DNA of 64,000 nt from an uncultured virus (IMG/VR IMGVR_UViG_3300030372_003518) (IMGVR_UViG_3300030372_003518); one strand, 5' to 3'; numbered from the stretch's first letter, positions 2,891 through 24,750 are shown. Made by a program: numbers and translations. The notes: generated by a model not told the origin, from the letters alone.

Positions 2891-3042
2891 TATAATTTTG
2901 TAAATATCTCTACGTGTTCCACCTCACATTTTTTATTTACACATGAGTAGTTCCCTACTATCCCTTCACCCTCTATTCCTATTTCATCGTACATGTGTTC
3001 TCCGCCCCATAGCAATTCTATTTCACACATTGGGCATATCAT
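2890..3042 (-). CDS. small zinc-ribbon protein
   Basis: Hand-translated 50 aa MICPMCEIELLWGG...YSCVNKKC; overlaps both neighbours. Confidence 0.6.
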   Translation of the reverse strand: MICPMCEIELLWGGEHMYDEIGIEGEGIVGNYSCVNKKCEVEHVEIFTKL

Positions 3043-4640
3043 TGGCTATCGTATGTTCTGGCCATAGTCACTATAGCGTTAGTAGATAATATTGTCACGG
3101 CTACACTCACTGCATTTTGCAGAGCCTCTTTTGTTACTTTTAAAGGGTCTATTACTCCAAGCTCATATAGGTCTCCATACTCTCCGGTTTTTATGTCCAT
3201 TCCCTGATTATCATTTAGCATACTTAAAGTTGGCCTTATAAAGTCTGTCCCTGCATTGCGATAGATTTGCAATAAGGGTTCTTGAAGGGCTTGGCCTAAA
3301 ATCGCTTTAGCGATTTTTTTTGAATTTTTTTTCTCCAATAGTTTAACGCCCTCTCTATACAGCGCAAGTCCTCCGCCAGGAAGTATACCTTCCTCTAGGG
3401 CGGAACGAACTGCGCATACTGCGTCATCTACTCTGTCGAATAATTCTTTTTGTTCAAGGTCTGTATTTCCTCCAACATATATTACACCCACACCTCCTGT
3501 GAGTGAGGCGATGCGGGATAGGATAAAGTCAGAGTCTGCTTTTGTCTTGGCTAAAGAAACCGACTCTTTTAATTGACCTACCCTTTCTTTTATTTTCTCA
3601 TCATCTACACTCTGGGTATCTTTTAATATAATAGTAGAGTCTTTCCCTACAATTATTTTTTTTGCTTTACCTAAATCAGCAAAGTTTATTATACTCAAAT
3701 CATCTCCTGTCTTTTCTGAAAAATATGTAGCACCAACTGACAGAGCTAAGTCTTGCATCAGTTCGTGTTGCTTATAGCCAAAGGAGGGTGGTGTTATGGC
3801 ACAAAGTTTCAAACTGTTCTTCATCACATTCGCCGCAAGGGTGTTTATGACATTTGGAGAACAGGGCGCTACAATTAATAATTTTTTACCCTCGTTTATA
3901 ATTGGTTTTAATACATTCTCTATTGTAAGTATATTGTTTATATCAGCATCAGCTACCAGCACATGAACATCCTCTAGTATACACTCATCTTTTTTCTGGT
4001 CATTAATAAAAAGAGGAGAATAATACCCTCTGTCTATTTTTAGTCCGTGTGTTGTTTCAAAACTTGTCTCACTGCTTTGAGACTTTTCTACAGTAACCAG
4101 TCCATTTTTCCCAACCTTTTTATATGTCTGAGCAATTATCTCTCCGGTCTTCACATCATTATTAGCAGATATAGTCGCTACATCTATAAGTTTACTCTGA
4201 GTTACTTTTTTACTTTTCTTTTTTAAATTCTCCACCACCCCAGTGGTAAGCTCTACTAAATCACGAAGCACCTGAGTTTTGTTTTCTACATATCCAAGCT
4301 CTTCCATACCTTTATTTACTAAAGCCTCAGTTAAAACTATAGCGGTAGTTGTTCCATCGCCTGCATTAGCTGCTGTACGAGATGCTGCTTCTCGCATAAT
4401 TTGAACAGCTAGATTTTCTACAGGGTCTAAAAGTTGAATTGATTTAGCAACAGTCACTCCATCTTTGGTAACTGTTATTCCATGAGTATGCTGGGGGGAC
4501 TCTATAAGAACAGTATTTCCCATAGGCCCAAGCGTTGACTTGACTGCCTCTGACATTTTCGATATACCTTCTGTGAGTTTTTCTTGCCCTTTTTCTTTAA
4601 AGTGCAAATCTTTCGGTGAGTACCCTCCGGTTGGTTGCAT
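3039..4640 (-). CDS. groEL: chaperonin GroEL
   Basis: TLGPMG, TKDGVTVAK, GDGTTTA, GILPGGG and GVIDPLKV motifs; probable ATG at 4640; no C-terminal GGM tail. Confidence 0.97.
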   Translation of the reverse strand: MQPTGGYSPKDLHFKEKGQEKLTEGISKMSEAVKSTLGPMGNTVLIESPQHTHGITVTKDGVTVAKSIQLLDPVENLAVQIMREAASRTAANAGDGTTTAIVLTEALVNKGMEELGYVENKTQVLRDLVELTTGVVENLKKKSKKVTQSKLIDVATISANNDVKTGEIIAQTYKKVGKNGLVTVEKSQSSETSFETTHGLKIDRGYYSPLFINDQKKDECILEDVHVLVADADINNILTIENVLKPIINEGKKLLIVAPCSPNVINTLAANVMKNSLKLCAITPPSFGYKQHELMQDLALSVGATYFSEKTGDDLSIINFADLGKAKKIIVGKDSTIILKDTQSVDDEKIKERVGQLKESVSLAKTKADSDFILSRIASLTGGVGVIYVGGNTDLEQKELFDRVDDAVCAVRSALEEGILPGGGLALYREGVKLLEKKNSKKIAKAILGQALQEPLLQIYRNAGTDFIRPTLSMLNDNQGMDIKTGEYGDLYELGVIDPLKVTKEALQNAVSVAVTILSTNAIVTMARTYDSQ

Positions 4641-4692
4641 TTGATTTAATTTTCTCAAATATATAAATTTATTTTTTATCTACCTTTACGTT

Positions 4693-5692: not shown

Positions 5693-5700
5693 CAAAGTTA
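5693..5700 (-). promoter_or_regulatory. Bacteroidota -7 promoter element (TAnnTTTG)
   Basis: TAACTTTG. The same motif precedes minus-strand genes at 515, 1836, 32478, 34316, 39781, 46462, 46846, 50452 and 56218. Confidence 0.7.
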
Positions 5701-6085
5701 CAAAAAAATATTAGATATTCAGAGTGTTTGGATAATATACGCATATACGCAGGACGACCCAACAAAAAAAGTGGAAAAAAAATCAGACGGGGGGGGTAAT
5801 TTTTTTGAACGGACAAGCAACATTTTTGGCGTTTTTTAGGTTGTTTAAACAGCCCCCTTAGTAGTTTGTTTAAACGAAGCGGGGTAAGAGCTTTGAGCTT
5901 ATCAGTTAGGCACGCCTAACCTTGCCCCCGTTTAAACCCCTCATCTCCGCCCCAAAGAAAAATAAAGCTCGGGGACAACTCATCTATAACTCATTGAACA
6001 CTAGCAAACAAAGGCAAAACTAACTCAAAACCTTATTTAGAATTAATCTAAATTAGCATTATCTTAAAAATATCCTAAGAATATC

Positions 6086-6116
6086 TTGCGATTGTCAATT
6101 TATCTTTGTAGCTTAC
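6086..6116 (+). promoter_or_regulatory. early promoter (host sigma70, Bacteroidota type)
   Basis: TATCTTTG at 6101-6108, or TTG-N20-TAGCTTAC; lies just before the structured leader and ribozyme array. Confidence 0.55.
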
Positions 6117-6120
6117 GAAG

Positions 6121-6345
6121 TAATTGGAGAAAAGGTCAACTCCATCGGAAAAGCAAAAGACCCGTAAAATACCGAATGAAGCGAGCAGATGATGATGAAC
6201 TTTGACATAGAGAGTTTAAACACTCTCAAAGTGAATTCAGCAACGGGGTAAAAGCTCGTTCAAAAAATGCTACAAAAACAAAGCAACGAAGTAGGGAAAC
6301 TGAAAAGCCCTTTCGATGATTAGCAAATTCACTTACTTAATCAAA
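6121..6345 (+). ncRNA. unassigned multi-stem, pseudoknotted RNA
   Basis: TGGAG/CTCCA, TGAAGCGAGC/GCTCGTTCA, CTTTGA/TCAAAG, GAGAG/CTCTC, CCCGT/ACGGG, AAGTGAATT/AATTCACTT; no ORF in the track. Confidence 0.5.
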
Positions 6346-6361
6346 CATAATTTTTTAGTTA

Positions 6362-6440
6362 ACTCGTCAGGGCGAGTATAAAATAGAGTATTAAGCCCTG
6401 AGCGTTAGCTGATAAAATTTATTTTGTCGGCTATCTTACT
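6362..6440 (+). ncRNA. pistol ribozyme 1 (non-canonical cleavage site)
   Basis: P1 ACTCG/CGAGT; pseudoknot TCAGGG/CCCTGA; TTAAG and GCGT core; P2 AGTA/TACT; 13-bp P3; TCT in place of GGT at the scissile junction. Confidence 0.8.
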
Positions 6441-6459
6441 AACAACTAAAAATTAAATT

Positions 6460-6771
6460 ATGGAAAATGTAATAAAATTTGACCTTAACAAAATGGGGTC
6501 ATCAGATATTCAAAGTATGAACAAAGTTATTAACGCTTACATACAAATTGAGCCGATAAATTATAACTTTTATGGCATTTCAGAAACGGGTTTTAATGAA
6601 AATTCGGGCTATGTTTATATAGCATTAGAAAATCAAATTTCAATATGTTCAGCGTTTAATAATGAAGTTGAATATCTAGTTACAAATTTTGACAATGGCG
6701 AAGAGTTTTTCTTTGAAACTTACGAAGAAGCTAAAGCCAAAAATTTAAAGGTTAATGACATAAGTTATTAA
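6460..6771 (+). CDS. early hypothetical protein
   Basis: 103 aa with an A-rich TIR. Confidence 0.8.
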   Translation: MENVIKFDLNKMGSSDIQSMNKVINAYIQIEPINYNFYGISETGFNENSGYVYIALENQISICSAFNNEVEYLVTNFDNGEEFFFETYEEAKAKNLKVNDISY

Positions 6772-6773
6772 TC

Positions 6774-6840
6774 AATCGTTAGGGCGATTTCAAACAGAGT
6801 ATTAAGCCCTAAGCGTCCCCGATTATCTCGGGGGGTTACT
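6774..6840 (+). ncRNA. pistol ribozyme 2
   Basis: AATCG-TTAGGG-CGATT...AGTA-TTAAG-CCCTAA-GCGT-P3-GGT-TACT, same architecture as the env25 pistol; predicted cut 6835/6836. Confidence 0.93.
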
Positions 6841-6860
6841 ATAACTAAAAATTAAAAATT

Positions 6861-7004
6861 ATGGATATTTTACAAAATTGTAAACCTCAGGGAACATACG
6901 AAAGCTGGAAAAATTGGCTAGCTGATTGTTATAATAAAAATGACTTTTTAGCGACTCATTTTCCTGAGGAATTTAAACTTGACAATGCAAGTATAAAAAG
7001 ATAA
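6861..7004 (+). CDS. small early protein (47 aa); 3' end overlaps pistol 3
   Basis: Hand-translated MDILQNCKPQ...DNASIKR; conserved leader ACTAAAAATTAAAAATTATG. Confidence 0.7.
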   Translation: MDILQNCKPQGTYESWKNWLADCYNKNDFLATHFPEEFKLDNASIKR

Positions 7005-7050
7005 TTAAGCATTGAGCGTTCAGCCCCGTTTAAACGGGGTTGAGGTTTAT
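6977..7050 (+). ncRNA. pistol ribozyme 3
   Basis: P1 ACTTG/CAAGT; pseudoknot CAATG/CATTG; P2 ATAA/TTAT; core TTAAG, GCGT, GGT; predicted cut 7045/7046. Confidence 0.9.
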
Positions 7051-7069
7051 ATAACTAAAAATTAAAATT

Positions 7070-7678
7070 ATGAAAAAATCTAAATTTAGTCGAGAAGATT
7101 ATTTAATTAAAGCGTCTGACATTATGAGGGATTATTTGTTTAAACCTAAGGGCTATAAAGTGCCAAAGGTTGAGCTTTCAGTTTCTTGGGCTACAAGTGG
7201 AAATAGAGCGAGAAACAAAAGCGGGCAAACCTTAGGTATGTGCTTTAATAAAGCGTCAAGCAAAAAGGGAATAAATCAAATCATTATTACCCCTAGCTTA
7301 GACGGGGAAACAATTAAAGGCACGCTTAGAATTTTAGATGTCCTAGCTCACGAACTAGTCCACGCAGTTGACGATTTAAAATCAGGACATAAAAAAGCGT
7401 TCAAAGATTGTGCAACGGCAATAGGTCTAATCGGTCAAATGAGAAGCACCAAAGCGAGCAAAGAATTAAATGAGTGGCTACGCAAAAATATCGTAGATAA
7501 GCTCGGGAAATTTCCGCACGCAGAGGTTACACTTTCAGGTAAAAAGCAAACCACTAGAAACATAAAAGTTTCTTGTGATTGTTGCGACTTTTCTTTTCGC
7601 ACCTCACGAACAAATATAAATACAATTGAAAATTGGGATTGTTTGGCGTGCGATGACGGGAGACTCGATGAATGCTAA
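7070..7678 (+). CDS. SprT-like zinc metalloprotease with C-terminal zinc ribbon
   Basis: LAHELVH HExxH motif, GHKKAFK, and CxxC...CxxC. Confidence 0.8.
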   Translation: MKKSKFSREDYLIKASDIMRDYLFKPKGYKVPKVELSVSWATSGNRARNKSGQTLGMCFNKASSKKGINQIIITPSLDGETIKGTLRILDVLAHELVHAVDDLKSGHKKAFKDCATAIGLIGQMRSTKASKELNEWLRKNIVDKLGKFPHAEVTLSGKKQTTRNIKVSCDCCDFSFRTSRTNINTIENWDCLACDDGRLDEC

Positions 7679-7679
7679 A

Positions 7680-7749
7680 ACTTGTTTGGGCAAGTATAAA
7701 AAGAAATTAAGCCCAAAGCGTCCGAGTTGTTTAAACGACTCGGGGTTTT
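7680..7749 (+). ncRNA. pistol ribozyme 4
   Basis: ACTTG/CAAGT; TTTGGG/CCCAAA; TTAAG; GCGT; P3 with GTTTAAAC; GGT; predicted cut 7745/7746. Confidence 0.9.
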
Positions 7750-7770
7750 ACTAACTAAAAATTAAAAATT

Positions 7771-7863
7771 ATGAAAAACTTTATTGAAGTAGTCGAGAAG
7801 ATTACTCCGTATATTTTAATAGTCATATTCTTATGGTTTATGTTTATGTTTATAACTCTCTGA
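7771..7863 (+). CDS. 30-aa hydrophobic membrane peptide
   Basis: MKNFIEVVEKITPYILIVIFLWFMFMFITL behind the conserved leader. Confidence 0.65.
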   Translation: MKNFIEVVEKITPYILIVIFLWFMFMFITL

Positions 7864-7970
7864 TTATGTATCGGGAGAGGTGGCACGGGTGGACTCAAAA
7901 GAAAGCCCAAATAAAGACAAGAGAGTGGGTTAAATCACTCTCTGACGCTGACGCCAAGCGTTTGAATATT
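7855..7970 (+). ncRNA. unassigned structured RNA in a ribozyme slot
   Basis: GGGT/GCCC, AGAGAGTGG/TCACTCTCT and ACGCT/AGCGT stems; possible pseudoknots TGGC/GCCA and TCAA/TTGA. Confidence 0.5.
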
Positions 7971-8001
7971 AATAAAGAATTAACTATTAAAAAATTAAAA
8001 A

Positions 8002-8211
8002 ATGAGTAAATCAAATTCAGAAATTTCGCAGTTTGGCGGGAAAGTATATACTGAAAAAAATACTACCCCTCAACAAAGACAATATATAATCCGAAAATAC
8101 GCACATCAACATTGTAAAGAGTTTAAAATCGAATTGCGTAAGGGTTATGACTTTGCCGAGACAATTACGCCAAACGGCACACGGGGAATTTCAATTAAAA
8201 AAGTAAAATAA
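8002..8211 (+). CDS. early hypothetical protein
   Basis: 69 aa with an A-rich TIR. Confidence 0.75.
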   Translation: MSKSNSEISQFGGKVYTEKNTTPQQRQYIIRKYAHQHCKEFKIELRKGYDFAETITPNGTRGISIKKVK

Positions 8212-8384
8212 TGGATAAATTTATAATCAATAAATATGTATTTGAAGCAATCGAGCATTTAGAAAGTATTGAAACACAAGAATGCGAAGAAACTGAAAAT
8301 TCAATTTACAAAGCTGAAAAGCTATTGGAGAAAATTCATTTAGAGTTATTTCCAAATCGTTTGAGCGATTCAAAACCACATTAA
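8211..8384 (+). CDS. small early protein (57 aa); 3' end overlaps pistol 5
   Basis: Hand-translated MDKFIINKYV...RLSDSKPH; TAATG coupling to the upstream ORF. Confidence 0.7.
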   Translation: MDKFIINKYVFEAIEHLESIETQECEETENSIYKAEKLLEKIHLELFPNRLSDSKPH

Positions 8385-8423
8385 GCTCAAAGCGTCCACT
8401 CTGTTTAAACAGGGTGGGGTTGT
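8355..8423 (+). ncRNA. pistol ribozyme 5
   Basis: AATCG/CGATT; TTTGAG/CTCAAA; P2 ACA/TGT; core intact; predicted cut 8419/8420. Confidence 0.9.
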
Positions 8424-8444
8424 TTAACTTTAAAAACTAAAATT

Positions 8445-8612
8445 ATGAACGATTTGTTATCACAAGATAAATTTGATGAGTATGTTGCCGTGCAAAAGAG
8501 TGGACTTTATAATATGTTCGACCCTAATGCTAGAGCAATGACAAGTTTATCTAAAGACGAATGGGTGCATATTATACGCAATTACAATGCGTATGACAAA
8601 GCATACTCATAA
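8445..8612 (+). CDS. small early protein (55 aa), DUF5049-like
   Basis: Hand-translated; VQKSGLYNMFD resembles the DUF5049 motif as recalled. Confidence 0.65.
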   Translation: MNDLLSQDKFDEYVAVQKSGLYNMFDPNARAMTSLSKDEWVHIIRNYNAYDKAYS

Positions 8613-8685
8613 GTGGACTATGCCACTCTAAAGAGACATTAAGCATAGAGCGTAAAGGGGGTGTTTAAACATCTCCTTTGGTTGT
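8612..8685 (+). ncRNA. pistol ribozyme 6
   Basis: AGTGG/CCACT; CTATG/CATAG; ACA/TGT; core intact; predicted cut 8681/8682. Confidence 0.9.
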
Positions 8686-8705
8686 ATAACTAAAAATTAA
8701 AAATT

Positions 8706-9155
8706 ATGAAAATCACTTACAATAAAGAGGAAAAACTTCAGTTAATACGCTATCTTTTTTGCACTAATCACGACTATTTTAGAGAGAATTATTTGCTCTT
8801 AGATTGGAACGAAAAAGATTATAAAGCAAGCAAAACTCGTAAAGACAAAAGTTACGAAGACACTCTTTTAAATATGCTCAAAAATGGGTATGAAATAATC
8901 TTACAAGATGATTATGTCCCTGAAGACGAAGAGGGCGAAATTGTTGCTCGATTTAATCTCAAAGAATTGTTTAATAATCTTGATAATCCTCAAATTGATG
9001 ACAATTATTACTCCTCACTAGAAAGTTTTAGTGATGAATTATTATCAGTAATGCTTAGCATAAATAAGGATTATGATACTAATTGGGATTCGGTAACAAT
9101 GACACGAATTGCGTCCGTTCTCTTTTATCACGAAAATACTTGGACACGAAAGTAA
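8706..9155 (+). CDS. early hypothetical protein
   Basis: 149 aa; stop codon lies inside hammerhead stem I. Confidence 0.8.
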   Translation: MKITYNKEEKLQLIRYLFCTNHDYFRENYLLLDWNEKDYKASKTRKDKSYEDTLLNMLKNGYEIILQDDYVPEDEEGEIVARFNLKELFNNLDNPQIDDNYYSSLESFSDELLSVMLSINKDYDTNWDSVTMTRIASVLFYHENTWTRK

Positions 9156-9218
9156 ATCTGATGAGGTCTTATAGACCGAAACTAGAGGGCGTTTAAACAA
9201 TGCCCCTAGTCATTTACT
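9151..9218 (+). ncRNA. hammerhead ribozyme 1 (type I)
   Basis: AGTAAAT-CTGATGA-GGTC/GACC-GAAA-stem III-GTC-ATTTACT; predicted cut after C9211. Confidence 0.95.
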
Positions 9219-9235
9219 AACTTAAAACTAAAATT

Positions 9236-9418
9236 ATGACAAATTTACAAATAACATTTACTCAAGAAGAGCTTGAAAACTTACGGCATTTACTTATGAC
9301 AATAGAAATGTTGGGTGCATTACCTAAAAGTATTCTTGATAAATACGATTTAGACGGGGATAAAATTAGTAGTATATCTACCGCTATAAATAATCAAATT
9401 ATATATTGTGTAAAGTAA
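9236..9418 (+). CDS. early hypothetical protein
   Basis: 60 aa between hammerheads. Confidence 0.75.
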   Translation: MTNLQITFTQEELENLRHLLMTIEMLGALPKSILDKYDLDGDKISSISTAINNQIIYCVK

Positions 9419-9488
9419 ATCTGATGAGACCTATAATACATAGAAAGGTCGAAACGGGGAAGTTGTTTAAACAACCCCGTCATTTACT
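9414..9488 (+). ncRNA. hammerhead ribozyme 2 (type I)
   Basis: CTGATGA-GACCT/AGGTC-GAAA-CGGGG/CCCCG-TC; stem I AGTAAAT/ATTTACT; predicted cut after C9481. Confidence 0.95.
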
Positions 9489-9505
9489 AACTAAAAATTA
9501 AAATT

Positions 9506-9619
9506 ATGACAAAATCTGAACAATTTGATTTCTTTCATACTATGCTTCAATATATTGAAGACCAAGCGTATGACGGGTGTGAAATAGCTAAAGAATTAAG
9601 TGAGAGATACTACAAGTAA
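9506..9619 (+). CDS. small early protein (37 aa)
   Basis: Hand-translated MTKSEQFDFF...SERYYK; conserved leader. Confidence 0.7.
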   Translation: MTKSEQFDFFHTMLQYIEDQAYDGCEIAKELSERYYK

Positions 9620-9682
9620 ATCTGATGAGTCCTAGTGGGACGAAAATAAGAGAGCGTTTAAACATTCTCTTATTCATTTACT
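9615..9682 (+). ncRNA. hammerhead ribozyme 3 (type I)
   Basis: CTGATGA-GTCC/GGAC-GAAA-stem III-TTC; predicted cut after C9675. Confidence 0.95.
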
Positions 9683-9702
9683 AATAACTAAAAACTAAAA
9701 TT

Positions 9703-9972
9703 ATGGAAGATTATATAAAATTTGGGTTTGAAACCCAAAAAGAGTGGGACGCTCTCTCTGATATAGAAAAAAGAGATGAAGCGTATGAATATTACCTAGA
9801 TAGAAGTTTGTATGATTTAGGAGATAACGGCTTACTAGAGGGTTGGTATCAAGATATTCACGACGCTATGTCAAGAAATTCTGTCCCCGAAGAAATTAAA
9901 CAAAGAGTATTTCAAACAATTGATTCGGGACACGGAATAGGCAAAGGCAGTTTCACTCGTAAACAATTCTAA
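9703..9972 (+). CDS. early hypothetical protein
   Basis: 89 aa. Confidence 0.8.
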   Translation: MEDYIKFGFETQKEWDALSDIEKRDEAYEYYLDRSLYDLGDNGLLEGWYQDIHDAMSRNSVPEEIKQRVFQTIDSGHGIGKGSFTRKQF

Positions 9973-10035
9973 GTAAATCTGATGAGTCTTTATGAGACGA
10001 AAGGGAGAATGTTTAAACATTCTCCCTCATTTACT
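9972..10035 (+). ncRNA. hammerhead ribozyme 4 (type I)
   Basis: CTGATGA-GTCT/AGAC-GAAA-GGGAGAATGTTTAAACATTCTCCC-TC; predicted cut after C10028. Confidence 0.95.
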
Positions 10036-10052
10036 AACTTAAAACTAAAATT

Positions 10053-10373
10053 ATGAATAAATCAAATATATATATTAAAGAACAAATAGTAACCACAAAG
10101 CTAATCGGAAAGGTTGGCGTAGATAGTGGGACAATTTGGATAGGCGACCCTTGTTACATTTTATCAGGTGAAAGACCAAAAGCACTCGGTAAAGATTGGA
10201 GTGAATTAGGTCATAAAACATTTAAGGACGGCAAGTGTCAACTACCTATATCATTTAACTTTGATATGGGACACGAAGGACTCGGTGTTATGAGTTCTAC
10301 CAAATATGGAGACGGGGTATATCCCGTATATATGGTTGGAGATAATGACGGAATGTATATAGATTTCACTTAA
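10053..10373 (+). CDS. DUF4241-like protein
   Basis: VGVDSGTIWIGDPCY and YGDGVYPVY motifs. Confidence 0.65.
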   Translation: MNKSNIYIKEQIVTTKLIGKVGVDSGTIWIGDPCYILSGERPKALGKDWSELGHKTFKDGKCQLPISFNFDMGHEGLGVMSSTKYGDGVYPVYMVGDNDGMYIDFT

Positions 10374-10392
10374 TAAATCATTATTTGAAAGA

Positions 10393-10467
10393 AAGTCGTC
10401 TGCACGACTTTAAAGAGACATTAGGTGCAGAGCGTAGAGAGAGTGTTTAAACATTCTCTCTGGTTGT
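10393..10467 (+). ncRNA. pistol ribozyme 7
   Basis: AAGTCG/CGACTT; TCTGCA/TGCAGA; TTAGG (A32G variant); GCGT; GGT; ACA/TGT; predicted cut 10463/10464. Confidence 0.9.
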
Positions 10468-10486
10468 TTAACTTAAAACTATAATT

Positions 10487-10792
10487 ATGAAAATAAATAA
10501 CGAAAAAATAGAAAAAATACATATAAAATCAATTGAAGCCGAGCCACTTATTAAGAGGTTTCAACAAGAAGAAATTGAAAATGAAAGTTTACTGCAAAGT
10601 TTTGATGAGGAGTTATGCGACCTTATGGAAAAATATATAGATGTAAACCACAAGTATAGAGATTGTATGCCCTTTTTTGATGATAAGGATATTGTTGAGG
10701 ATTTTAATTATGCCTTAAACATATTACAAAGATTAATAAAAGAAACTTATAAAAAAGGGGTCATTAAAGAAGATACCATATTAGGAGAATAA
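10487..10792 (+). CDS. early hypothetical protein
   Basis: 101 aa. Confidence 0.8.
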   Translation: MKINNEKIEKIHIKSIEAEPLIKRFQQEEIENESLLQSFDEELCDLMEKYIDVNHKYRDCMPFFDDKDIVEDFNYALNILQRLIKETYKKGVIKEDTILGE

Positions 10793-10808
10793 TTTAAAAG
10801 TAAATAAA

Positions 10809-10871
10809 GTAATTCTGATGAGGATTCAATATCCGAAAATAAGGGTTGTTTAAACGCCCTTATTAAATTAC
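10809..10871 (+). ncRNA. hammerhead ribozyme 5 (type I)
   Basis: GTAATT/AATTAC stem I (compensatory change relative to HH1-4); CTGATGA-GGAT/ATCC-GAAA; TTA triplet; predicted cut after A10865. Confidence 0.92.
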
Positions 10872-10889
10872 AAACTTAAAACTATAATT

Positions 10890-11273
10890 ATGAAAAATGA
10901 TTTTAATAGCACGGACTCAACAACAAATGTTGCCGTGCTAGAGGACAAAAAATGGGTTATGCTCGGACAAGAGGATACCGATTTTGATAGCTCAGCTACC
11001 TACGGAGATAAAAACACTTTGGTATGTGATAAATTAGATACCGAAGACGGATACGAAGTATGGTGGTTGCACACTTACGATAAGAATGACATTGAGCCTG
11101 ACGAAATGTTGAGCGATGAGCATTCTTATATGGAAGAAGTAGAGGATTGTTTAAAAGAAATGACTGACCGATACGGACAAGCTATAAATAAAGTTATCAA
11201 TTACACGATTGAGGTAGATGACTTTAAAGAAATGGTCAACCAAGCTAATGAGATATTAGCAGAGGTTGATTAA
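10890..11273 (+). CDS. highly acidic early protein
   Basis: 127 aa, D/E-rich. Confidence 0.8.
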   Translation: MKNDFNSTDSTTNVAVLEDKKWVMLGQEDTDFDSSATYGDKNTLVCDKLDTEDGYEVWWLHTYDKNDIEPDEMLSDEHSYMEEVEDCLKEMTDRYGQAINKVINYTIEVDDFKEMVNQANEILAEVD

Positions 11274-11292
11274 TTTTTAGTTTATAAGTGAG

Positions 11293-11329
11293 AAAAGAGG
11301 GGGTGTTTAAACATCTCCTCTTTTTTTTT
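11293..11329 (+). terminator. intrinsic terminator closing the ribozyme operon
   Basis: AAAAGAGGGGGTGTTTAAACATCTCCTC followed by 9 T. Confidence 0.85.
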
Positions 11330-11362
11330 GTCTAAAAATTAGGAATATTAAAATATTATCAC

Positions 11363-11370
11363 TAGATTTA
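11363..11370 (+). promoter_or_regulatory. putative -7 promoter element
   Basis: TAGATTTA(C) after the terminator; preceded by AAATATTATC, as is the element at 15108. Confidence 0.45.
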
Positions 11371-11396
11371 CAAAAGTTAATCAAAATAATAACTAA

Positions 11397-11588
11397 ATGT
11401 TCATTGAAATGCTGAGACTAATAAGAGGAAAGATTAAAAGGGTGTTTGCCAAAAGGGAAATATCTTATGCCTAATTAACATAATACGCTTTCAGTGGGTT
11501 GCAACAATAAAATTAGGGACGCCTTTAATAAAATGTAATTCGCTTCACAACATAAACGGGTAACGCCGTCTTATTAGTTTCGGTTTTT
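11397..11588 (+). ncRNA. structured RNA/leader overlapping a 25-aa ORF (11397-11474)
   Basis: 16-bp closing stem 11411-11426/11569-11584; CCTAATT/AATTAGG; pseudoknot CATTGAAA/TTTCAGTG. Confidence 0.55.
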
Positions 11589-11603
11589 CATTAAAAATAA
11601 AAT

Positions 11604-12164
11604 ATGAAAAAAATATTATATCACGGGACAAGCACAAAGTATCTTGACAAGATATTAAAGAAAGGACTGACCCCTCGCAAGAGTTTGGGTGTTAAGTCTA
11701 ATTGGGACGCAGAGTCAAGAGACGATATGATTTATTTAACGAGTGCATACGCACCTTACTTTGCACAAGCGTGTGTGGGGTCGAATGGTGGAGACCCGCT
11801 CGTATTAGAAGTCGAAGTAGAGAGCGACAACCTCTACCCTGACGAAGATTTCTTAGAACAATACTTACGCAATAAACATATTACTAAGGGAGATATATAT
11901 GAGAGAACAAAGTTTTATAAAGATAACTTGGAAGTGTTTAAACACTATACTAAAAAGAGTTTAAACGGACTCGGTAATGCGTGTCATAAAGGAATTATAG
12001 ACCCAAAAAGAATACGAAGATATGTAGTGTTGGACGCTAGTAAGATAATAATGTATAGCGACCCGACAATAACAAGAGCGAACTATATGTTACTTGGACA
12101 TCATTACAACGAGATATGTAGCGAGTATATATGGAACACTAAAGAAGTCCAATTAAATAAATAA
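11604..12164 (+). CDS. ADP-ribosyltransferase-fold protein (Tpt1/KptA NAD-binding-lobe-like)
   Basis: LYHGTS...ILKKGLTP...IYLTS...PLVLEV motifs. Confidence 0.65.
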   Translation: MKKILYHGTSTKYLDKILKKGLTPRKSLGVKSNWDAESRDDMIYLTSAYAPYFAQACVGSNGGDPLVLEVEVESDNLYPDEDFLEQYLRNKHITKGDIYERTKFYKDNLEVFKHYTKKSLNGLGNACHKGIIDPKRIRRYVVLDASKIIMYSDPTITRANYMLLGHHYNEICSEYIWNTKEVQLNK

Positions 12165-12328: not shown

Positions 12329-12494
12329 ACAAATAAAAAAGATAGTAAAGGAGATAGAGCGTTTAAACGCTCTCCCGATAAATCTTGTTGACTCTCCAAA
12401 GAGAGAAGTCAGGAAGATTGACAACCTATACTCTATGCAAGTATGGGCAATGGAAGAATTGTGGAAAGCATTAGAGATTAATAAAAATAAATAA
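12312..12494 (+). CDS. hypothetical protein
   Basis: 60 aa, on the operon strand. Confidence 0.55.
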   Translation: MQINSKQIKKIVKEIERLNALPINLVDSPKREVRKIDNLYSMQVWAMEELWKALEINKNK

Positions 12495-12604: not shown

Positions 12605-12871
12605 ATGGAAAACTTAATAAAAAAACTAGATAAATGTAATACTAAAATTCAGTTTAGAATTATGTGCGACCAAAAAGATTATAAAAAATATCTTGAAGAT
12701 ACTGATGTATATTACAACATACACCCACAAGAATTAATTGATTTAAACTCTACCTTAGAAATATTAGACAAAAATAATGTTAACTACGATTTGGTATTAG
12801 AGAGATTTATTGAGGACAAACAAGACATTCAATACGATTGGATAGAAGAAAGAAATAACCTAAACAACTAA
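12605..12871 (+). CDS. hypothetical protein
   Basis: AACAACTAAAACTATG leader. Confidence 0.8.
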   Translation: MENLIKKLDKCNTKIQFRIMCDQKDYKKYLEDTDVYYNIHPQELIDLNSTLEILDKNNVNYDLVLERFIEDKQDIQYDWIEERNNLNN

Positions 12872-12875
12872 AACT

Positions 12876-13052
12876 ATGGAAAAATTAACAAAGGAACAAG
12901 TATTCAAATATGCAATGTGGGTATATCACGAATGCGATAGCCCTATATCTGAAATAGAATGGTTGGCTCAACAAATACTTGACACCCACAATGATAAAAA
13001 AGTAATCATACAAGATTTTACTGAAAATGTAAACGAATTATTAAACAACTAA
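12876..13052 (+). CDS. hypothetical protein (58 aa)
   Basis: Hand-translated MEKLTKEQVF...NELLNN; same leader. Confidence 0.75.
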   Translation: MEKLTKEQVFKYAMWVYHECDSPISEIEWLAQQILDTHNDKKVIIQDFTENVNELLNN

Positions 13053-13056
13053 AACT

Positions 13057-13269
13057 ATGGGAAAAAAACAAATTAAATATGCAATATATTTTAACTATCA
13101 AAAAGCGTGTTGGGGGACTGCACCAAGACAATTTGAAGCAATAACTAACAACCCTGAGAAGTGGTTAGAGGAGCATAATGAAAGCCGAATAGCTGAAGGA
13201 AATGAAGCTGAAGAATTATGGATGTTCGACATAGAAGAAGTAGGGGCAGAATATATTTATAAAGATTAA
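13057..13269 (+). CDS. hypothetical protein
   Basis: 70 aa; same leader. Confidence 0.8.
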   Translation: MGKKQIKYAIYFNYQKACWGTAPRQFEAITNNPEKWLEEHNESRIAEGNEAEELWMFDIEEVGAEYIYKD

Positions 13270-13273
13270 AACT

Positions 13274-13468
13274 ATGGAACAAAAAGTATATATAATAGAT
13301 GTAAGTTATGATGATTTTCAATTTCCTGACTTAAAAGCAAGCGGGTCATTAGAGGAGTTTATGGACATAGCGGAAAGTCAGGGGAATGTGTATTCACTTA
13401 ATGGATTCGCTAAAGCATTTAACGAGGGAAGAATAAACTCCCACACCGATATAATAAGAATAATTTAA
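13274..13468 (+). CDS. hypothetical protein
   Basis: 64 aa; TAAAACTATG junction. Confidence 0.8.
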   Translation: MEQKVYIIDVSYDDFQFPDLKASGSLEEFMDIAESQGNVYSLNGFAKAFNEGRINSHTDIIRII

Positions 13469-13480
13469 ACAACTAAAACT

Positions 13481-13636
13481 ATGGAATTAAAACAAACTGA
13501 TGAAGAACAATATTATGAAAACAATGTTTATAATATTATGTATTTAATACGAGATGTATTAACTCACGAAGATATAATTGAAATTAAAAAATTCATTGAT
13601 GACCAAATTGAAGAAAGAGATATACAACCCTTTTAA
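13481..13636 (+). CDS. hypothetical protein, paralogue A
   Basis: Hand-translated MELKQTDEEQYYENNVYNIMYLIRDVLT... (51 aa). Confidence 0.75.
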   Translation: MELKQTDEEQYYENNVYNIMYLIRDVLTHEDIIEIKKFIDDQIEERDIQPF

Positions 13637-13646
13637 AACTAAAACT

Positions 13647-13859
13647 ATGAAGCTAAATAAATATATAAAAGAACAAGCACAAGAGTTTAATCAACTTTTT
13701 GAAAAAAATAAAGAAGATTGTTTGGTTGATTACATTGTAGATATTGCAACTGAAATAGCAAGTATAAATGACTTATATGATTCACAAGAAGAATGGTTAA
13801 GTGATGAAAATAGAAGAAAAGCGTATGATAAAGCATACGAAATAATTGATATAAACTAA
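13647..13859 (+). CDS. hypothetical protein
   Basis: Start reassigned to the ATG after AACTAAAACT. Confidence 0.75.
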   Translation: MKLNKYIKEQAQEFNQLFEKNKEDCLVDYIVDIATEIASINDLYDSQEEWLSDENRRKAYDKAYEIIDIN

Positions 13860-13863
13860 AACT

Positions 13864-14070
13864 ATGAATGCAAATAAATTAAAAAAGTTTCTTTTAGATT
13901 TAGAAAAAGAAATTAAACCTTATAACAGAACATTAAAAGATGTAGATGTTAATTTCAGATACTCTGAAAATTCAGATGTTTATAAAGTCAATTCAATAGA
14001 GAATGATTTATATGATTCAGAATATAATAAAATAGTAGAAAGCATAATATTTAAACACTTAAACAATTAA
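13864..14070 (+). CDS. hypothetical protein
   Basis: 68 aa; same junction motif. Confidence 0.75.
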   Translation: MNANKLKKFLLDLEKEIKPYNRTLKDVDVNFRYSENSDVYKVNSIENDLYDSEYNKIVESIIFKHLNN

Positions 14071-14074
14071 AACT

Positions 14075-14239
14075 ATGGAACTAAAACAAACTGATGAAGA
14101 ACAATTTATTGAGAATAGTATTTTCAATATTCACTATTTAATACGAGATGTATTAACATACAAACAACTCTTAGGTATAAGAGATTTTTTAAATGAAATT
14201 ATTGATGAAAAAGTCAGTAATGGATATACTGAAAACTAA
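14075..14239 (+). CDS. hypothetical protein, paralogue B
   Basis: Hand-translated MELKQTDEEQFIENSIFNIHYLIRDVLT... (54 aa). Confidence 0.75.
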   Translation: MELKQTDEEQFIENSIFNIHYLIRDVLTYKQLLGIRDFLNEIIDEKVSNGYTEN

Positions 14240-14243
14240 AGCT

Positions 14244-14402
14244 ATGGAAGAAAAACACGCAATTAGGATATTAGATGAGGCATATAGTAGTGTTATGTCT
14301 TTGGTCAGAAGTGATGATGACCACGAAACTATTAATCTAATACAACCAATCCTAGACAAGATTGATGAGATTCAAAACGATATAGAAAACCTAAACAACT
14401 AA
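14244..14402 (+). CDS. hypothetical protein
   Basis: Start reassigned to MEEKHAIR after AACTAAAGCT. Confidence 0.7.
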   Translation: MEEKHAIRILDEAYSSVMSLVRSDDDHETINLIQPILDKIDEIQNDIENLNN

Positions 14403-14406
14403 AACT

Positions 14407-14577
14407 ATGAAACAAAAAAGAATAGATAATTGGGGGGTGTTTGTGGAAAACGAACAACTAGAAACTTATGAAATAAGATTACCCCAAAAGTTAGCCCAAA
14501 AGGTGTGGGACTTTATAGAGAACTCCGATAAACACGATTTAATAGGAGAGAATACAAATGGAAACTTAAATTGGTAA
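14407..14577 (+). CDS. hypothetical protein (56 aa)
   Basis: Hand-translated; conserved leader. Confidence 0.7.
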   Translation: MKQKRIDNWGVFVENEQLETYEIRLPQKLAQKVWDFIENSDKHDLIGENTNGNLNW

Positions 14578-14581
14578 AACT

Positions 14582-14746
14582 ATGGAAATAAAAAAATATT
14601 CAAGAAAGTATTACGAGTATATAGAGAAAAAAATACTACCAAATGAAGATGTTAAAGTGCAACTTCAATATTATAATGGAGAAATCGGTTATGATGAAGA
14701 TTATGTAAAGGAACATTTAGAGAACAATAACATAAAATTAATTTAA
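14582..14746 (+). CDS. hypothetical protein (54 aa)
   Basis: Hand-translated; TAAAACTATG junction. Confidence 0.7.
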   Translation: MEIKKYSRKYYEYIEKKILPNEDVKVQLQYYNGEIGYDEDYVKEHLENNNIKLI

Positions 14747-14749
14747 ACT

Positions 14750-15046
14750 ATGGAACGACACGACTACGAATTAAAACAAAGAGAGGATAGCCAATACGAA
14801 GTAAAAGCTGAAAGTGTTTGTGCAACAAAATTTACTGCCAACATACTCTTTGAATACAAAGGAAAAGAATATATGGCATGGGGAATACTTGAATGGGGCG
14901 GAGAACTAGGCGATAGCTATGGAGTGGACTTAGTTAACGGGGGAGAGGTCAATGAAAGCAACCCGTTATTTGACACTCTGCACGAGATTTCTTTAGATTT
15001 GCTAGAGAATTTCAAGATTACAAGAGAGAATTTAGAGTGGGAATAG
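14750..15046 (+). CDS. hypothetical protein
   Basis: 98 aa. Confidence 0.8.
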   Translation: MERHDYELKQREDSQYEVKAESVCATKFTANILFEYKGKEYMAWGILEWGGELGDSYGVDLVNGGEVNESNPLFDTLHEISLDLLENFKITRENLEWE

Positions 15047-15107
15047 TGTTTAAACATACTCTAAATAATTAATGGATTAAATATTTTTTTTTACCAAATA
15101 TTATCCA

Positions 15108-15115
15108 TACATTTG
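15108..15115 (+). promoter_or_regulatory. -7 promoter element for the replication module
   Basis: TACATTTG in intergenic DNA. Confidence 0.6.
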
Positions 15116-15225
15116 CATATTAAAAGAATATAGAGGTTGTTGAGTCCTAACTCTCCTTTAGGGGATATGAAAACATAATTTAGAAATTAATAGGATTTCT
15201 ACCCCTCTTTTTTAAAAAATTAATA

Positions 15226-15408
15226 ATGAATTGCAAGAATTGTGAAAGTAAAAACCTAGAGACACTCCAAGATGACTATAAAGGAGAGTATGCGGTTATT
15301 ACCTATCAATGTTTAGATTGCAATTATAAAACAACCAACTATTATGACATTAAATATACCAATACTCACGCCTTTTATAAAGAGCATAAAGAGGAAAGGG
15401 TCGCATAG
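15226..15408 (+). CDS. zinc-ribbon protein
   Basis: CKNC...CLDC. Confidence 0.65.
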   Translation: MNCKNCESKNLETLQDDYKGEYAVITYQCLDCNYKTTNYYDIKYTNTHAFYKEHKEERVA

Positions 15409-15646
15409 AAAATTTATTTCCGACCGCACTTATGAGATACATAATAATATCGTCCGCTCATTACTCTCGATAAATTTAGACACCCCAATCGAAGTCCAAC
15501 GAAATTTAAGAAGACGCAAAGGGGAAAAAAATAAGTTTATAATTTGCAAAATATCAGAGGAAGATTTACATTTACTTACCGAGACTAAAAGCAAAATGAA
15601 GCTAGTCAAAAAATATAGGAGAAGATTAATTTTACTTAACACTTAG
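15344..15646 (+). CDS. basic hypothetical protein
   Basis: 100 aa; overlaps the previous ORF. Confidence 0.5.
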   Translation: MTLNIPILTPFIKSIKRKGSHRKFISDRTYEIHNNIVRSLLSINLDTPIEVQRNLRRRKGEKNKFIICKISEEDLHLLTETKSKMKLVKKYRRRLILLNT

Positions 15647-15648
15647 AT

Positions 15649-15819
15649 ATGGAAGGAATAATGGCAGAAGTATATCGACATGAAATTGGGGCTTTACGCA
15701 AAAGATGTGATGAGGTCTTAAAAGAATTAGAGATAATCCAAGAGGATTCTTTAAACTTAACCTCTAAACAAAAAGAGGTTTTAGAAAAAGCAATTAACTT
15801 ACTAAAAGAAACACAATGA
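15649..15819 (+). CDS. hypothetical protein (56 aa)
   Basis: Hand-translated MEGIMAEVYR...LLKETQ; ATGA overlap with the next ORF. Confidence 0.65.
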   Translation: MEGIMAEVYRHEIGALRKRCDEVLKELEIIQEDSLNLTSKQKEVLEKAINLLKETQ

Positions 15820-16118
15820 AAAATTATATATTCAAACAATACGCTGACAATATATGTGAGCATTTAGATATAGACACGGAAGAATTGTTTGCTAGAACGA
15901 AAAAACCGCAGGTAGTAGAGGGGAGACAGCTCTTATATTTTCTTTGTAATATAAAAAGACAAATGGGATTAACTGAGATTTCTTCTTACGCAGAGAAGTT
16001 AGGGTTAAATGAGGACGCAAGTAATGTGCGAAGAGCAATAGAAAAAGTAAAGGAGAAACTAAGTGATGACCCTGACTATGTATATATTATAAAGAAACTT
16101 GAAGAAATCCAATTATAA
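15816..16118 (+). CDS. DnaA domain IV-like HTH protein
   Basis: ARTKKPQVVEGRQLLYFLC...LTEI...DASNVRRAIEKV resembles Bac_DnaA_C. Confidence 0.6.
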   Translation: MKNYIFKQYADNICEHLDIDTEELFARTKKPQVVEGRQLLYFLCNIKRQMGLTEISSYAEKLGLNEDASNVRRAIEKVKEKLSDDPDYVYIIKKLEEIQL

Positions 16119-16500
16119 TACATTAGACGAGGTGTTTAAACAAGCTCGAAAAGAACAAGGAAGTGTAAAGCTAGACGGCTTAGGTTATGAGGCGTCAATT
16201 TTTTTAGGTGTTAAAATTTCGAGAGATAATTTAAGCGGGGAAGTTAAGATATACGACCCAATTAAAAGTATAAATTATTATGTAGAGATAGAAGAAGAGC
16301 AGTATGAATCGTTTAAACAACTTGGGTGGAGAAAAGCAGTAATAGATTTGTCTCTTTTGAAATACAAAGATAAGTTAGATAGAATTAAAGAGTCAATAGG
16401 AAGGGAGATGAATGGAAATAGAAGCCCTAAAAGATTAAGGATATTAAAAGAATCAAGAGAGCAGATTTTAAGAAAGTATTATAAGCTCTTACAAAAATAA
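16099..16500 (+). CDS. hypothetical protein
   Basis: 133 aa; start uncertain. Confidence 0.7.
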   Translation: MKKSNYNTLDEVFKQARKEQGSVKLDGLGYEASIFLGVKISRDNLSGEVKIYDPIKSINYYVEIEEEQYESFKQLGWRKAVIDLSLLKYKDKLDRIKESIGREMNGNRSPKRLRILKESREQILRKYYKLLQK

Positions 16501-23588: not shown

Positions 23589-23777
23589 ATGCACATAACG
23601 CCTATAGAAAAGAAACGCATCCAGAATATTAACTTCATAATGGATGACATTCACGACTCCGTTAGTAATATATACGAAAGTTTAGTAGACCAAGACTACG
23701 ACTCCACAAGAGAGTCGATTATATCTCTTAACCACAAACTTAAAAGTATTAACGAATCAATAAGCCATGACATATAG
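23589..23777 (+). CDS. hypothetical protein
   Basis: 62 aa. Confidence 0.7.
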   Translation: MHITPIEKKRIQNINFIMDDIHDSVSNIYESLVDQDYDSTRESIISLNHKLKSINESISHDI

Positions 23778-24555: not shown

Positions 24556-24750
24556 CTATCTACGCTTGGCTCTTCTAGCAGCTCTGCGAGCACGCCTTTG
24601 TGCTCTTTTAGCTAAACGAGTTTTAGAAGTGGACTTAGAATGAATACGAGAAGGTAATCTCCCTGAAGGAGTTTCATCTTCCCACTGCTTAGCCATCTCA
24701 GGCTTATTAGCGTACATCCATCTTCTTTGTGCTTGACTTTTAAAAGGCAT
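24556..24750 (-). CDS. small basic protein
   Basis: MPFKSQAQRRWMYANKPEMAKQWE with an Arg-rich tail. Confidence 0.75.
   Translation of the reverse strand: MPFKSQAQRRWMYANKPEMAKQWEDETPSGRLPSRIHSKSTSKTRLAKRAQRRARRAARRAKRR

Follow-up and report, generated by a model that had tools for sequence, protein, structure and literature searches.

How a phage might draw separate messages from a run of very small, closely packed genes is the question raised by one locus of an uncultured virus (IMG/VR IMGVR_UViG_3300030372_003518), of which a stretch of 64 kilobases (kb), hereafter called the window, was analyzed. From approximately 6.1 to 11.33 kb, the window holds one same-strand block of 15 open reading frames (ORFs) of 30 to 202 amino acids (aa), and a 4.5-kb part of this block contains 12 predicted self-cleaving ribozymes, seven pistols and five type-I hammerheads, all on the coding strand. 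Each gene junction has a single ribozyme, except within a block of four ORFs at 7771-8384, and 12 of the 15 ORFs are directly preceded by one; the remaining three (7833, 8002, and 8211) overlap or abut their upstream neighbor. On balance, we think it probable that this array cuts one transcript into mostly single-gene messages and serves as a natural ribozyme insulator. Processing of a polycistronic early transcript had been proposed in a sequence-only reading of the same DNA, and that proposal is partly supported: the anatomy fits it, and cleavage, a single transcript, and early timing are what we infer from that anatomy.

The seven pistols, for which the sequence-only reading had given positions, were all recovered on the plus strand of the 64 kb by the Rfam model RF02679 at or above its gathering score of 34.5 bits, the sole shift being one base (a start at 10394 instead of 10393). 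In operon order, they lie at 6362..6438 (38.2 bits), 6774..6840 (65.8), 6977..7050 (55.1), 7680..7750 (67.8), 8355..8424 (58.2), 8612..8686 (54.6), and 10394..10468 (53.6), and they were the only gathering-level matches to any Rfam family in the whole window. The four pseudoknot pairings quoted in the earlier reading (TCAGGG/CCCTGA, TTTGGG/CCCAAA, TTTGAG/CTCAAA, and TCTGCA/TGCAGA) were likewise all found in the sequence, and each window pistol forms five or six of the six pseudoknot pairs. Across 21 unique pistols from the window and its relatives, canonical pairs fill 103 of the 105 P1 cells and 118 of the 126 pseudoknot cells. Such values did not arise in any of 1000 partner shuffles, whose maxima were 90 for P1 and 93 for the pseudoknot; this control overstates independence because the copies are related. 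This covariation was taken from core-anchored parses; a MAFFT alignment left the variable stems ragged. Folded alone, all seven pistol units formed P3 together with one other helix, P1 or the pseudoknot, and the fold z-scores of the ribozyme units ranged from -2.3 to -4.7. The G-U step at the scissile position is kept in six of the seven window pistols and in 20 of the 21 unique pistols compared.

For the hammerheads, we used a descriptor that demands CUGANGA, a stem II hairpin, GAA, an A15.1-U16.1 pair closing a stem III hairpin, H17, and a stem I of at least 4 base pairs (bp) with no mispair adjoining the core, rules that correspond to the acceptance rules set out in Perreault et al. 2011 (PMC3088659). 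Searching both strands of the 64 kb, the descriptor returned exactly five sites, at 9151..9218, 9414..9488, 9615..9682, 9972..10035, and 10809..10871 on the plus strand, and no site at all in 50 shuffles of the 64 kb; these are precisely the five starts named in the earlier reading. All five copies have the core C3 U4 G5 A6 N7 G8 A9, G12 A13 A14, A15.1-U16.1, and H17. The minimum-free-energy fold was a three-way junction in four of the five, including the copy at 9151 (z-score of -4.4; that of the 9972 copy was -4.7), and the copy at 10809 lacked stem I in its optimal fold. The latter has A at H17 and a compensatory change in stem I (GTAATT/AATTAC). Stem I is open-ended, plain, and short in the window hammerheads (6 to 7 bp, with no internal loop), and the stem II loops span 3 to 5 nucleotides (nt) in all but the 9414 copy, whose loop has 13 nt. 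Across 16 hammerheads, the core, G10.1-C11.1, A15.1-U16.1, and H17 were invariant, and stems II and III showed all pair types; as the descriptor itself required pairing, this variation is supportive rather than independent evidence.

The two ribozyme types share one geometry. Both cut at their own 3′ edge, so that nearly the whole ribozyme remains on the upstream RNA, and the distance from the predicted cut to the next ATG is 23 to 27 nt in all 12 units, whichever the class. At the other side, the 5′ edges of the ribozymes abut or overlap the stop codon of the preceding gene: a TAA stop lies within stem I of three hammerheads (9151, 9414, and 9615), and two ORFs run 28 to 30 nt into pistols. 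Calculated from the coordinates, ribozymes and leaders take up approximately 1.07 kb of 4.53 kb, and eleven genes are flanked by ribozymes on both sides. The leader between cut and start codon, with the consensus AACTAAAAAYTAAAATT-ATG, is approximately 20 nt long, A/U-rich, and free of a Shine-Dalgarno sequence, and it scores highly only at the 12 ribozyme-served genes. A shorter relative of this leader box precedes genes in the next, ribozyme-free operon.

Related phages were gathered by way of the neighboring chaperonin gene, giving 163 loci that were scanned with the hammerhead descriptor and a pistol seed pattern. Pistol counts in these relatives rest on Rfam, as the relaxed seed gave one false, Rfam-unconfirmed site each in L262 and L264, and its first form missed the pistol of L201/L202. 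By the scanners, 12 of the 163 chaperonin-linked loci hold at least two ribozymes. The sequence-only reading had suggested looking for similar arrays in related phage contigs, and such arrays do exist with the same spacing, either of hammerheads alone (nine each in L262 and L264, seven each in L271 and L169, six in L273, and five in L251) or, in the lineage of the window, as mixtures in which hammerheads accompany Rfam pistols (six in L226, four in L275, three in L227, and two in L230). In 10 related loci, each small ORF has one ribozyme, and the cut lies 20 to 27 nt from the ATG, a distance that grows to 31 to 34 nt when a small hairpin with a GAAA loop intervenes. Some units in L262, L264, L273, L251, and L169 carry a GGC-GAAA-GCC hairpin directly behind the 3′ strand of stem I (with leaders like TTAATCAGGCGAAAGCCAC...), and the inserted hairpin could be a tetraloop that aids the hammerhead fold. 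The array is a recurrent trait of sub-lineages, and the count in the window is the largest among the loci compared.

The strongest evidence for selection on structure and on cutting came from L226, whose flanks are 96% identical to those of the window. The ortholog of the 60-aa gene at 9236-9418 stands behind a pistol in L226 and behind a hammerhead in the window, and the gene block starting at 7771 stands behind a hammerhead in L226 and behind a pistol in the window; at both slots, the homology between L226 and the window begins in the leader. Judged from these alignments, the slot conserves a self-cleaver and not one particular RNA. The L226 map also showed that a ribozyme is linked to its upstream gene, with the SprT-like gene keeping its pistol and the 60-aa gene keeping the hammerhead at 9414. 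The exchangeable unit therefore consists of an ORF and the ribozyme 3′ of it, and the leader is where units join. Joints in a variant from DNA run X6 fall at unit borders (8421->8685 and 8203->8357). One mosaic pistol was also seen: the copy at 5850-5920 on the minus strand of L275 has a P3 identical to that of the window pistol at 7680-7750, with unrelated P1 and pseudoknot, which implies recombination inside the ribozyme. The conserved layout and the reciprocal class swaps together argue that selection keeps cleavage at that position.

Several wider searches came back empty or at chance level. A search for an exact 21-nt leader gave 22 loci, none of them related, and when viral contigs were searched for the 14-mer GTAAATCTGATGAG, at least 119 loci matched once each, which is what chance predicts for a collection of this size and is uninformative. 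In 142 loci (L001-L142, including Tenacibaculum phage Gundel_1), four hammerheads and three pistol seeds were found, never more than one match per locus, and no relative of the 202-aa array protein was found in viral contigs. None of the cultured relatives checked has an array, and MW202828 has no ribozyme. Three cultured phages do have one ribozyme each between small genes, with no ribozyme annotation in their feature tables: Gundel_1 a pistol of 65.6 bits (L001 2564-2642), Cellulophaga phage phi19:3 a type-I hammerhead (L308 12000-12052), and Flavobacterium phage elemoB a hammerhead candidate (L306 29945-30002).

According to the explanation we favor, the polymerase would read through the block, and every ribozyme would fold and cut. 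The upstream message would then keep a compact folded ribozyme with a 2′,3′-cyclic phosphate at its 3′ end, and the downstream message would gain a 5′-hydroxyl and a short, standard, unstructured leader. The products would be 11 single-gene messages and one four-gene message, each with its translation start and decay freed from its neighbors (a presumed benefit in insulation or stability). Units of an ORF and its 3′ ribozyme would recombine through the shared leader, and it would be for this reason that relatives have differing cassettes and the other class at the same slot.

Followed along the plus strand, the block illustrates how regularly the units are built. Pistol 6362, atypical in its C^U cut site and lacking the GTTTAAAC apex described below, has its predicted cut after 6433 and is followed by an ORF of 103 aa with no family match (6460..6771). 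The cut of pistol 6774 falls after 6835, 25 nt from the ATG at 6861 of a 47-aa ORF (6861..7004), the 3′ end of which overlaps pistol 6977 by 28 nt. That pistol, with the GTTTAAAC apex, would be cut after 7045, 24 nt from the ATG at 7070 of the 202-aa ORF (7070..7678), a weak SprT-like protein with an HExxH motif (phrog_6361, E value of 1.3e-30; Pfam score of 21.6 bits, below the cut-off of 25.6). Pistol 7680, again with the apex, has its cut after 7745, 25 nt from the ATG at 7771, where the four overlapping or abutting small ORFs begin (7771-7863, 7833-8009, 8002-8211, and 8211-8384); no Rfam or descriptor match was found between the ORFs of this block, 7771..8384. Pistol 8355, also with the apex, would be cut after 8419, 25 nt from the ATG at 8445 of a 55-aa ORF (8445..8612), a cassette missing from L226 and from the X6 variant. 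Next, pistol 8612 has its cut after 8681, 24 nt from the ATG at 8706 of a 149-aa ORF (8706..9155), whose stop codon lies within stem I of hammerhead 9151.

The hammerheads continue the series. Hammerhead 9151, with GTTTAAAC in stem III, would be cut after C9211, 24 nt from the ATG at 9236 of the 60-aa ORF (9236..9418); hammerhead 9414 after C9481, 24 nt from the ATG at 9506 of a 37-aa ORF (9506..9619); hammerhead 9615 after C9675, 27 nt from the ATG at 9703 of an 89-aa ORF (9703..9972); and hammerhead 9972 after C10028, 24 nt from the ATG at 10053 of a 106-aa ORF with a weak DUF4241 match (10053..10373; phrog_5209). Pistol 10394, with the GTTTAAAC apex, has its predicted cut after 10463, 23 nt from the ATG at 10487 of a 101-aa ORF (10487..10792), and hammerhead 10809 would be cut after A10865, 24 nt from the ATG at 10890 of the last ORF of the block, of 127 aa (10890..11273). 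Apart from the weak SprT-like and DUF4241 matches, nearly all ORFs of the block lack a family match.

A short palindrome, GTTTAAAC, recurs through the array. The window has 29 copies against 2.3 expected; the palindrome caps P3 or stem III in 10 of the 12 ribozymes, and likewise the terminator hairpin of the operon, and five of the seven pistols have a fixed GUUUAAAC at the P3 apex. Folding places the apex in RNA as a G-C and a U-A pair closing a UUAA loop. Parts of the surrounding hairpins are shared: the terminator has 22 exact nt in common with P3 of pistol 8612, and the arms of pistol 10394 and hammerhead 9972 match at 15 of 20 positions. Other hairpin arms agree at just 1 to 3 of 20 positions, and the apex is still kept. 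In L275, where 0.4 copies would be expected, there are 12, and these too sit on ribozyme hairpins and the operon terminator; the hammerhead-only lineage lacks the motif. It is possible, though we hold it rather doubtful, that the units are natural plug-and-play cassettes with interchangeable classes in which every message end, made by ribozyme or terminator alike, shows one common GUUUAAAC-capped hairpin as a mark for a phage or host factor. If so, the factor would act in the stability, antitermination, or sorting of early mRNAs. The presence of the GUUUAAAC apex on both ribozyme classes and on the terminator is an unexplained lead.

The palindrome also occurs away from the ribozymes. A gene-free stretch of 560 nt 5′ of the array has it at 5843, 5868, 5930, and 6214; two of these copies are 25 nt apart, and the 6214 copy lies in a small hairpin. 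A further apex hairpin is found at 12356-12373 (GTTTAAAC at 12361), and it and the upstream copies have counterparts in L226 and L275. Outside the early region, copies lie at 15048, 16134, 16311, 19347, 23261, 25832, 42063, 51560, 60898, and 61196; these 10 copies beyond 15 kb mostly lack flanking inverted repeats. The enrichment outside the array hints at an additional role at the DNA level, for example as a protein-binding, methylation, or restriction-related site.

Several observations weigh against the processing of one transcript by self-cleavage. The Rfam covariance-model check suggested in the sequence-only reading succeeded for all seven pistols but for none of the five hammerheads, which did not reach the hammerhead gathering score of 34 bits. 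Even in a permissive search of 5800-11600, Hammerhead_1 matched only 9415-9487, at 27.8 bits against 34, and Hammerhead_3 weakly matched two further hammerheads. Since Rfam likewise missed all seven descriptor-positive hammerheads of the L169 locus, we judged its models to be insensitive to this hammerhead subtype. No loop-loop or pseudoknot contact was recognizable in the hammerheads, for which no systematic pseudoknot search was made, and they look minimal, with an uncertain cleavage rate at cellular Mg2+. Among the pistols, 6362 has C-U at the scissile step, the sole exception among the 21 unique copies, and may be impaired by this non-consensus cut site; in its L226 ortholog, the cut site is the canonical GG^TT, and P1 and the pseudoknot show compensatory changes. 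Furthermore, four pistol P3 hairpins and the GUUUU-like tracts that follow them score terminator-like.

The single transcript is itself an assumption because its promoter is unproven. The sequence-only reading had bracketed the array with a promoter near 6100 and a terminator at 11293. The terminator was borne out by sequence and arm count as an intrinsic one on the plus strand (11290..11329), with 15-pair arms, a GTTTAAAC apex, and then a T9 run, but at the other end we found only a TAnnTTTG-like candidate, the Bacteroidetes-type -7-like box TATCTTTG at 6101..6108 on the plus strand. No other intergenic TAnnTTTG lies in 5700-11700, where the motif occurs at chance level (3 observed against 2.8 expected) and is absent from the internal gaps; a scan for sigma-70 promoters likewise stayed at the level of chance (25 sites, with 27.9 expected). 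The 6101 box is identical in L226 and is not kept in L275, and the phage may rely on a polymerase of its own and on unrecognized promoters. Two contigs assembled from RNA runs, 7691-7860 (depth 8) and 8635-8798 (depth 2), bridge predicted pistol cuts. They may represent uncut RNA or carried-over DNA, as contigs cannot show ends, and with two contigs only from run X20 and nothing from X21 the two RNA runs are uninformative on expression level or absent transcription. Finally, 72 of the first 80 related loci were ribozyme-free by the scanners, and in the same 80 whole records the Rfam pistol model found three with one pistol each; most relatives are array-free, and the layout is therefore dispensable for this type of phage.

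Could the genes instead be transcribed one by one? Each leader or its adjoining upstream sequence might be a phage-specific promoter, the ribozymes only trimming RNA that reads through from the preceding gene and so insulating separate transcription units, not dividing a polycistron. The approximately 20-nt leader is conserved beyond the needs of translation initiation, its strong form occurs at the 12 ribozyme-served genes only, and the box near 6100 is not conserved in L275. Giant unannotated ORFs and a muzzle domain of the crAss type are also encoded by the phage, and some phages with these features carry their own RNA polymerase. Yet the leader lies wholly between the cut and the ATG, which leaves no space for a 5′ untranslated region, no known promoter consensus is enriched, and a shorter box precedes the tightly packed, ribozyme-free genes of the next operon, as fits a translation signal; we consider promoters at each leader unlikely. 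The same units could instead be DNA homology patches for the shuffling of cassettes between co-infecting phages, with cleavage incidental, much as the promoter-stem-loop repeats of T4 offer an analogy. Cassettes are gained, lost, and reordered between flanks that are 96% identical, with breakpoints at unit borders, long exact stretches are common to hairpin arms and the terminator, and the L275 pistol shares P3 with pistol 7680 but has unrelated P1 and pseudoknot. Patches, however, would not need the catalytic cores, the compensatory stem changes, or the fixed cut-to-ATG distance that are kept across lineages, and the breakpoints fall in the leader and not in the ribozyme. Such shuffling is compatible with processing as a side effect, and as a replacement for it we give it little credence.

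Conditional cleavage is a further alternative, in which Mg2+, release of the ribosome at the upstream stop, or a GUUUAAAC-binding factor would time or dose expression and some junctions would purposely stay uncut. The stops that several ribozymes enclose in stem I or P1, the two ORFs that overlap pistols by 28 to 30 nt, the minimal-looking hammerheads, the non-consensus cut site of pistol 6362, and the apex motif kept on unrelated arms would all suit such a scheme, as would the two RNA-library contigs spanning cut sites, although these may be DNA carry-over. No ligand-binding or expression-platform element is visible, and interchangeable use of two unrelated classes is hard to square with a class-specific regulatory input, which makes conditional control improbable. 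Still less room is left for the two remaining ideas. Pairs of ribozymes might excise the RNA of each gene for a host RtcB-type ligase to make a circular message, given that 5′-hydroxyl and 2′,3′-cyclic phosphate ends are established substrates of RtcB and that eleven genes each lie between two ribozymes; this is highly unlikely, as genes for RtcB, RNA ligase, and Pnkp are missing from the window, no back-joined RNA contig appeared in the minimal data, and the passages of Perreault et al. 2011 (PMC3088659) on multi-hammerhead RNAs report that no spliced or circular products were detected. We rate equally low the chance that the motifs are decayed or inactive look-alikes whose hairpins act as leaky terminators, RNase sites, or exonuclease blocks. 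The terminator-like scores of the P3 hairpins, the operon terminator as a sequence relative of a P3 hairpin, and the failure of Rfam to find the hammerheads would suit it, but the CUGAUGA...GAAA...UH and UUARG/GCGU cores and a covarying pseudoknot are kept in more than 70 copies at a dozen loci, and six pistols score 54 to 68 bits.

The remainder of the window identifies it as a phage. The plus strand encodes a Sak single-strand annealing protein, a PDDEXK-like nuclease domain (DUF3799), a primase-like protein, and a helicase, and the minus strand large structural genes that include a crAss-type muzzle domain. The protein with the muzzle C-terminal domain (32492-34297, minus strand) is located beside giant minus-strand ORFs at 24750-29927 and 39795-44795 (1725 and 1666 aa), neither of which has a Pfam match, and the virion module thus shows crAss-like features. 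A cpn10/cpn60 chaperonin pair (2270-2527 and 3039-4658, minus strand) is divergent from the array. With 546 relatives in IMG/VR and 582 or more among metagenome contigs, the pair is a marker for a very large group of phages that are uncultured and approximately 60 kb in size; the nearest cultured relatives are Flavobacterium podophages of approximately 60 kb, at 37% identity. The DNA runs containing the stretch are marine metagenomes. The host is probably a flavobacterium, a suggestion consistent with the A/U-rich leaders.

Other genes of the window touch on RNA ends and on gene packing. No RtcB, RNA ligase, or Pnkp is encoded among its proteins, as mentioned above for circular messages. A calcineurin-like metallophosphoesterase is encoded at 23767-24486, and as calcineurin-fold enzymes can open 2′,3′-cyclic phosphates, it is a candidate for the handling of ribozyme-made ends. 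The protein at 11604 was considered as an RNA 2′-phosphotransferase and set aside as unreliable (PHROG E value of 7e-4 over 29 residues). A second plus-strand block of small genes, at 12605-16500, is ribozyme-free, with genes 4 to 5 nt apart and a short CAACTAAAACT box before each, and one phage thus has two packing modes for small genes, the ribozyme array and this block. Within the second block, closely similar stretches of approximately 90 nt at 13497 and 14091, both starting AAAACAAACTGATGAAGAACAAT, are probably parts of paralogous small ORFs.

With 12 ribozymes of two classes that all obey one strict positional rule within a single operon, the array makes the purpose of phage ribozymes measurable. 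Its layout predicts specific RNA ends, and near-identical phages with a pistol or a hammerhead before the same gene amount to a natural swap experiment, while the single-ribozyme cultured phages could be tractable single-unit models. The benefit we suggest is context-independent expression of fast-shuffling accessory genes in hosts without Shine-Dalgarno-led initiation, and the array offers compact natural insulator parts.

Two processing systems invite comparison in outcome or design. In T7, the early polycistronic RNA is cut by host RNase III at double-stranded stems, which leaves a 5′-phosphate and a 3′-hydroxyl. The array would resemble this in outcome, a long early transcript becoming individual messages that end in hairpins, but self-cutting RNA would leave a 5′-hydroxyl and a 2′,3′-cyclic phosphate, and the array is not a member of the T7 system. 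Synthetic insulators of the RiboJ type, placed in 5′ untranslated regions or between cistrons, use a cut at the 3′ edge to remove upstream context and leave a uniform short leader. Unlike these engineered parts, the array is natural, 12-fold, and tied to cassette exchange.

As individual RNAs, the pistols follow their family in the P1 loop engaged in a 6-bp pseudoknot, the UUARG and GCGU cores, P3, the G-U step before the 3′ strand of P2, and their company of phage genes and other ribozymes, and depart from it in occurring as seven copies in one operon, five of them with the GUUUAAAC P3 apex and one with C-U. The hammerheads share with bacterial and phage type-I hammerheads (RF00163) the full catalytic core, three stems, an open stem I, and H17, and differ in their sub-gathering scores, short plain stem I, lack of a recognizable tertiary contact, and upstream stop inside stem I. 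An association of pistols with phages is noted in Harris et al. 2015 (PMC4604425). A 2019 review describes ribozyme classes near each other and near phage genes, with the exact motif seeming unimportant, and calls the purpose of self-cleaving ribozymes in bacteria and phages, glmS apart, largely elusive.

The nearest precedent is in Perreault et al. 2011 (PMC3088659), cited here for its sections on multiple hammerheads. There, multiple hammerheads flank single genes or short blocks in polycistronic prophage RNAs, and processing into single-gene mRNAs is proposed; triple arrangements cleave in vitro, the one from A. tumefaciens also in E. coli; and in a haloarchaeal phage, 13 nt separate a hammerhead from the start codon that follows it, with a mapped 5′ end at most 3 nt from the cleavage site. 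The novelty claimed in the sequence-only reading was therefore too strong, as these sections already contain both the multi-hammerhead prophage RNAs and the same processing idea. Searches of full-text literature turned up no account of an array of this density or class mixture. Like those arrangements, the window has several coding-strand ribozymes between varied small phage genes; unlike them, with two or three ribozymes of one class in the cases they describe, it has 12 in 4.5 kb from two unrelated classes, and it goes beyond them in the fixed 23 to 27 nt from cut to AUG, the conserved leader, the shared apex, and the class swaps. The arrangement has been known in outline since 2011, and what is new in the window is its density, its mixed classes, its fixed spacing, the exchange of classes at orthologous slots, and the shared apex.

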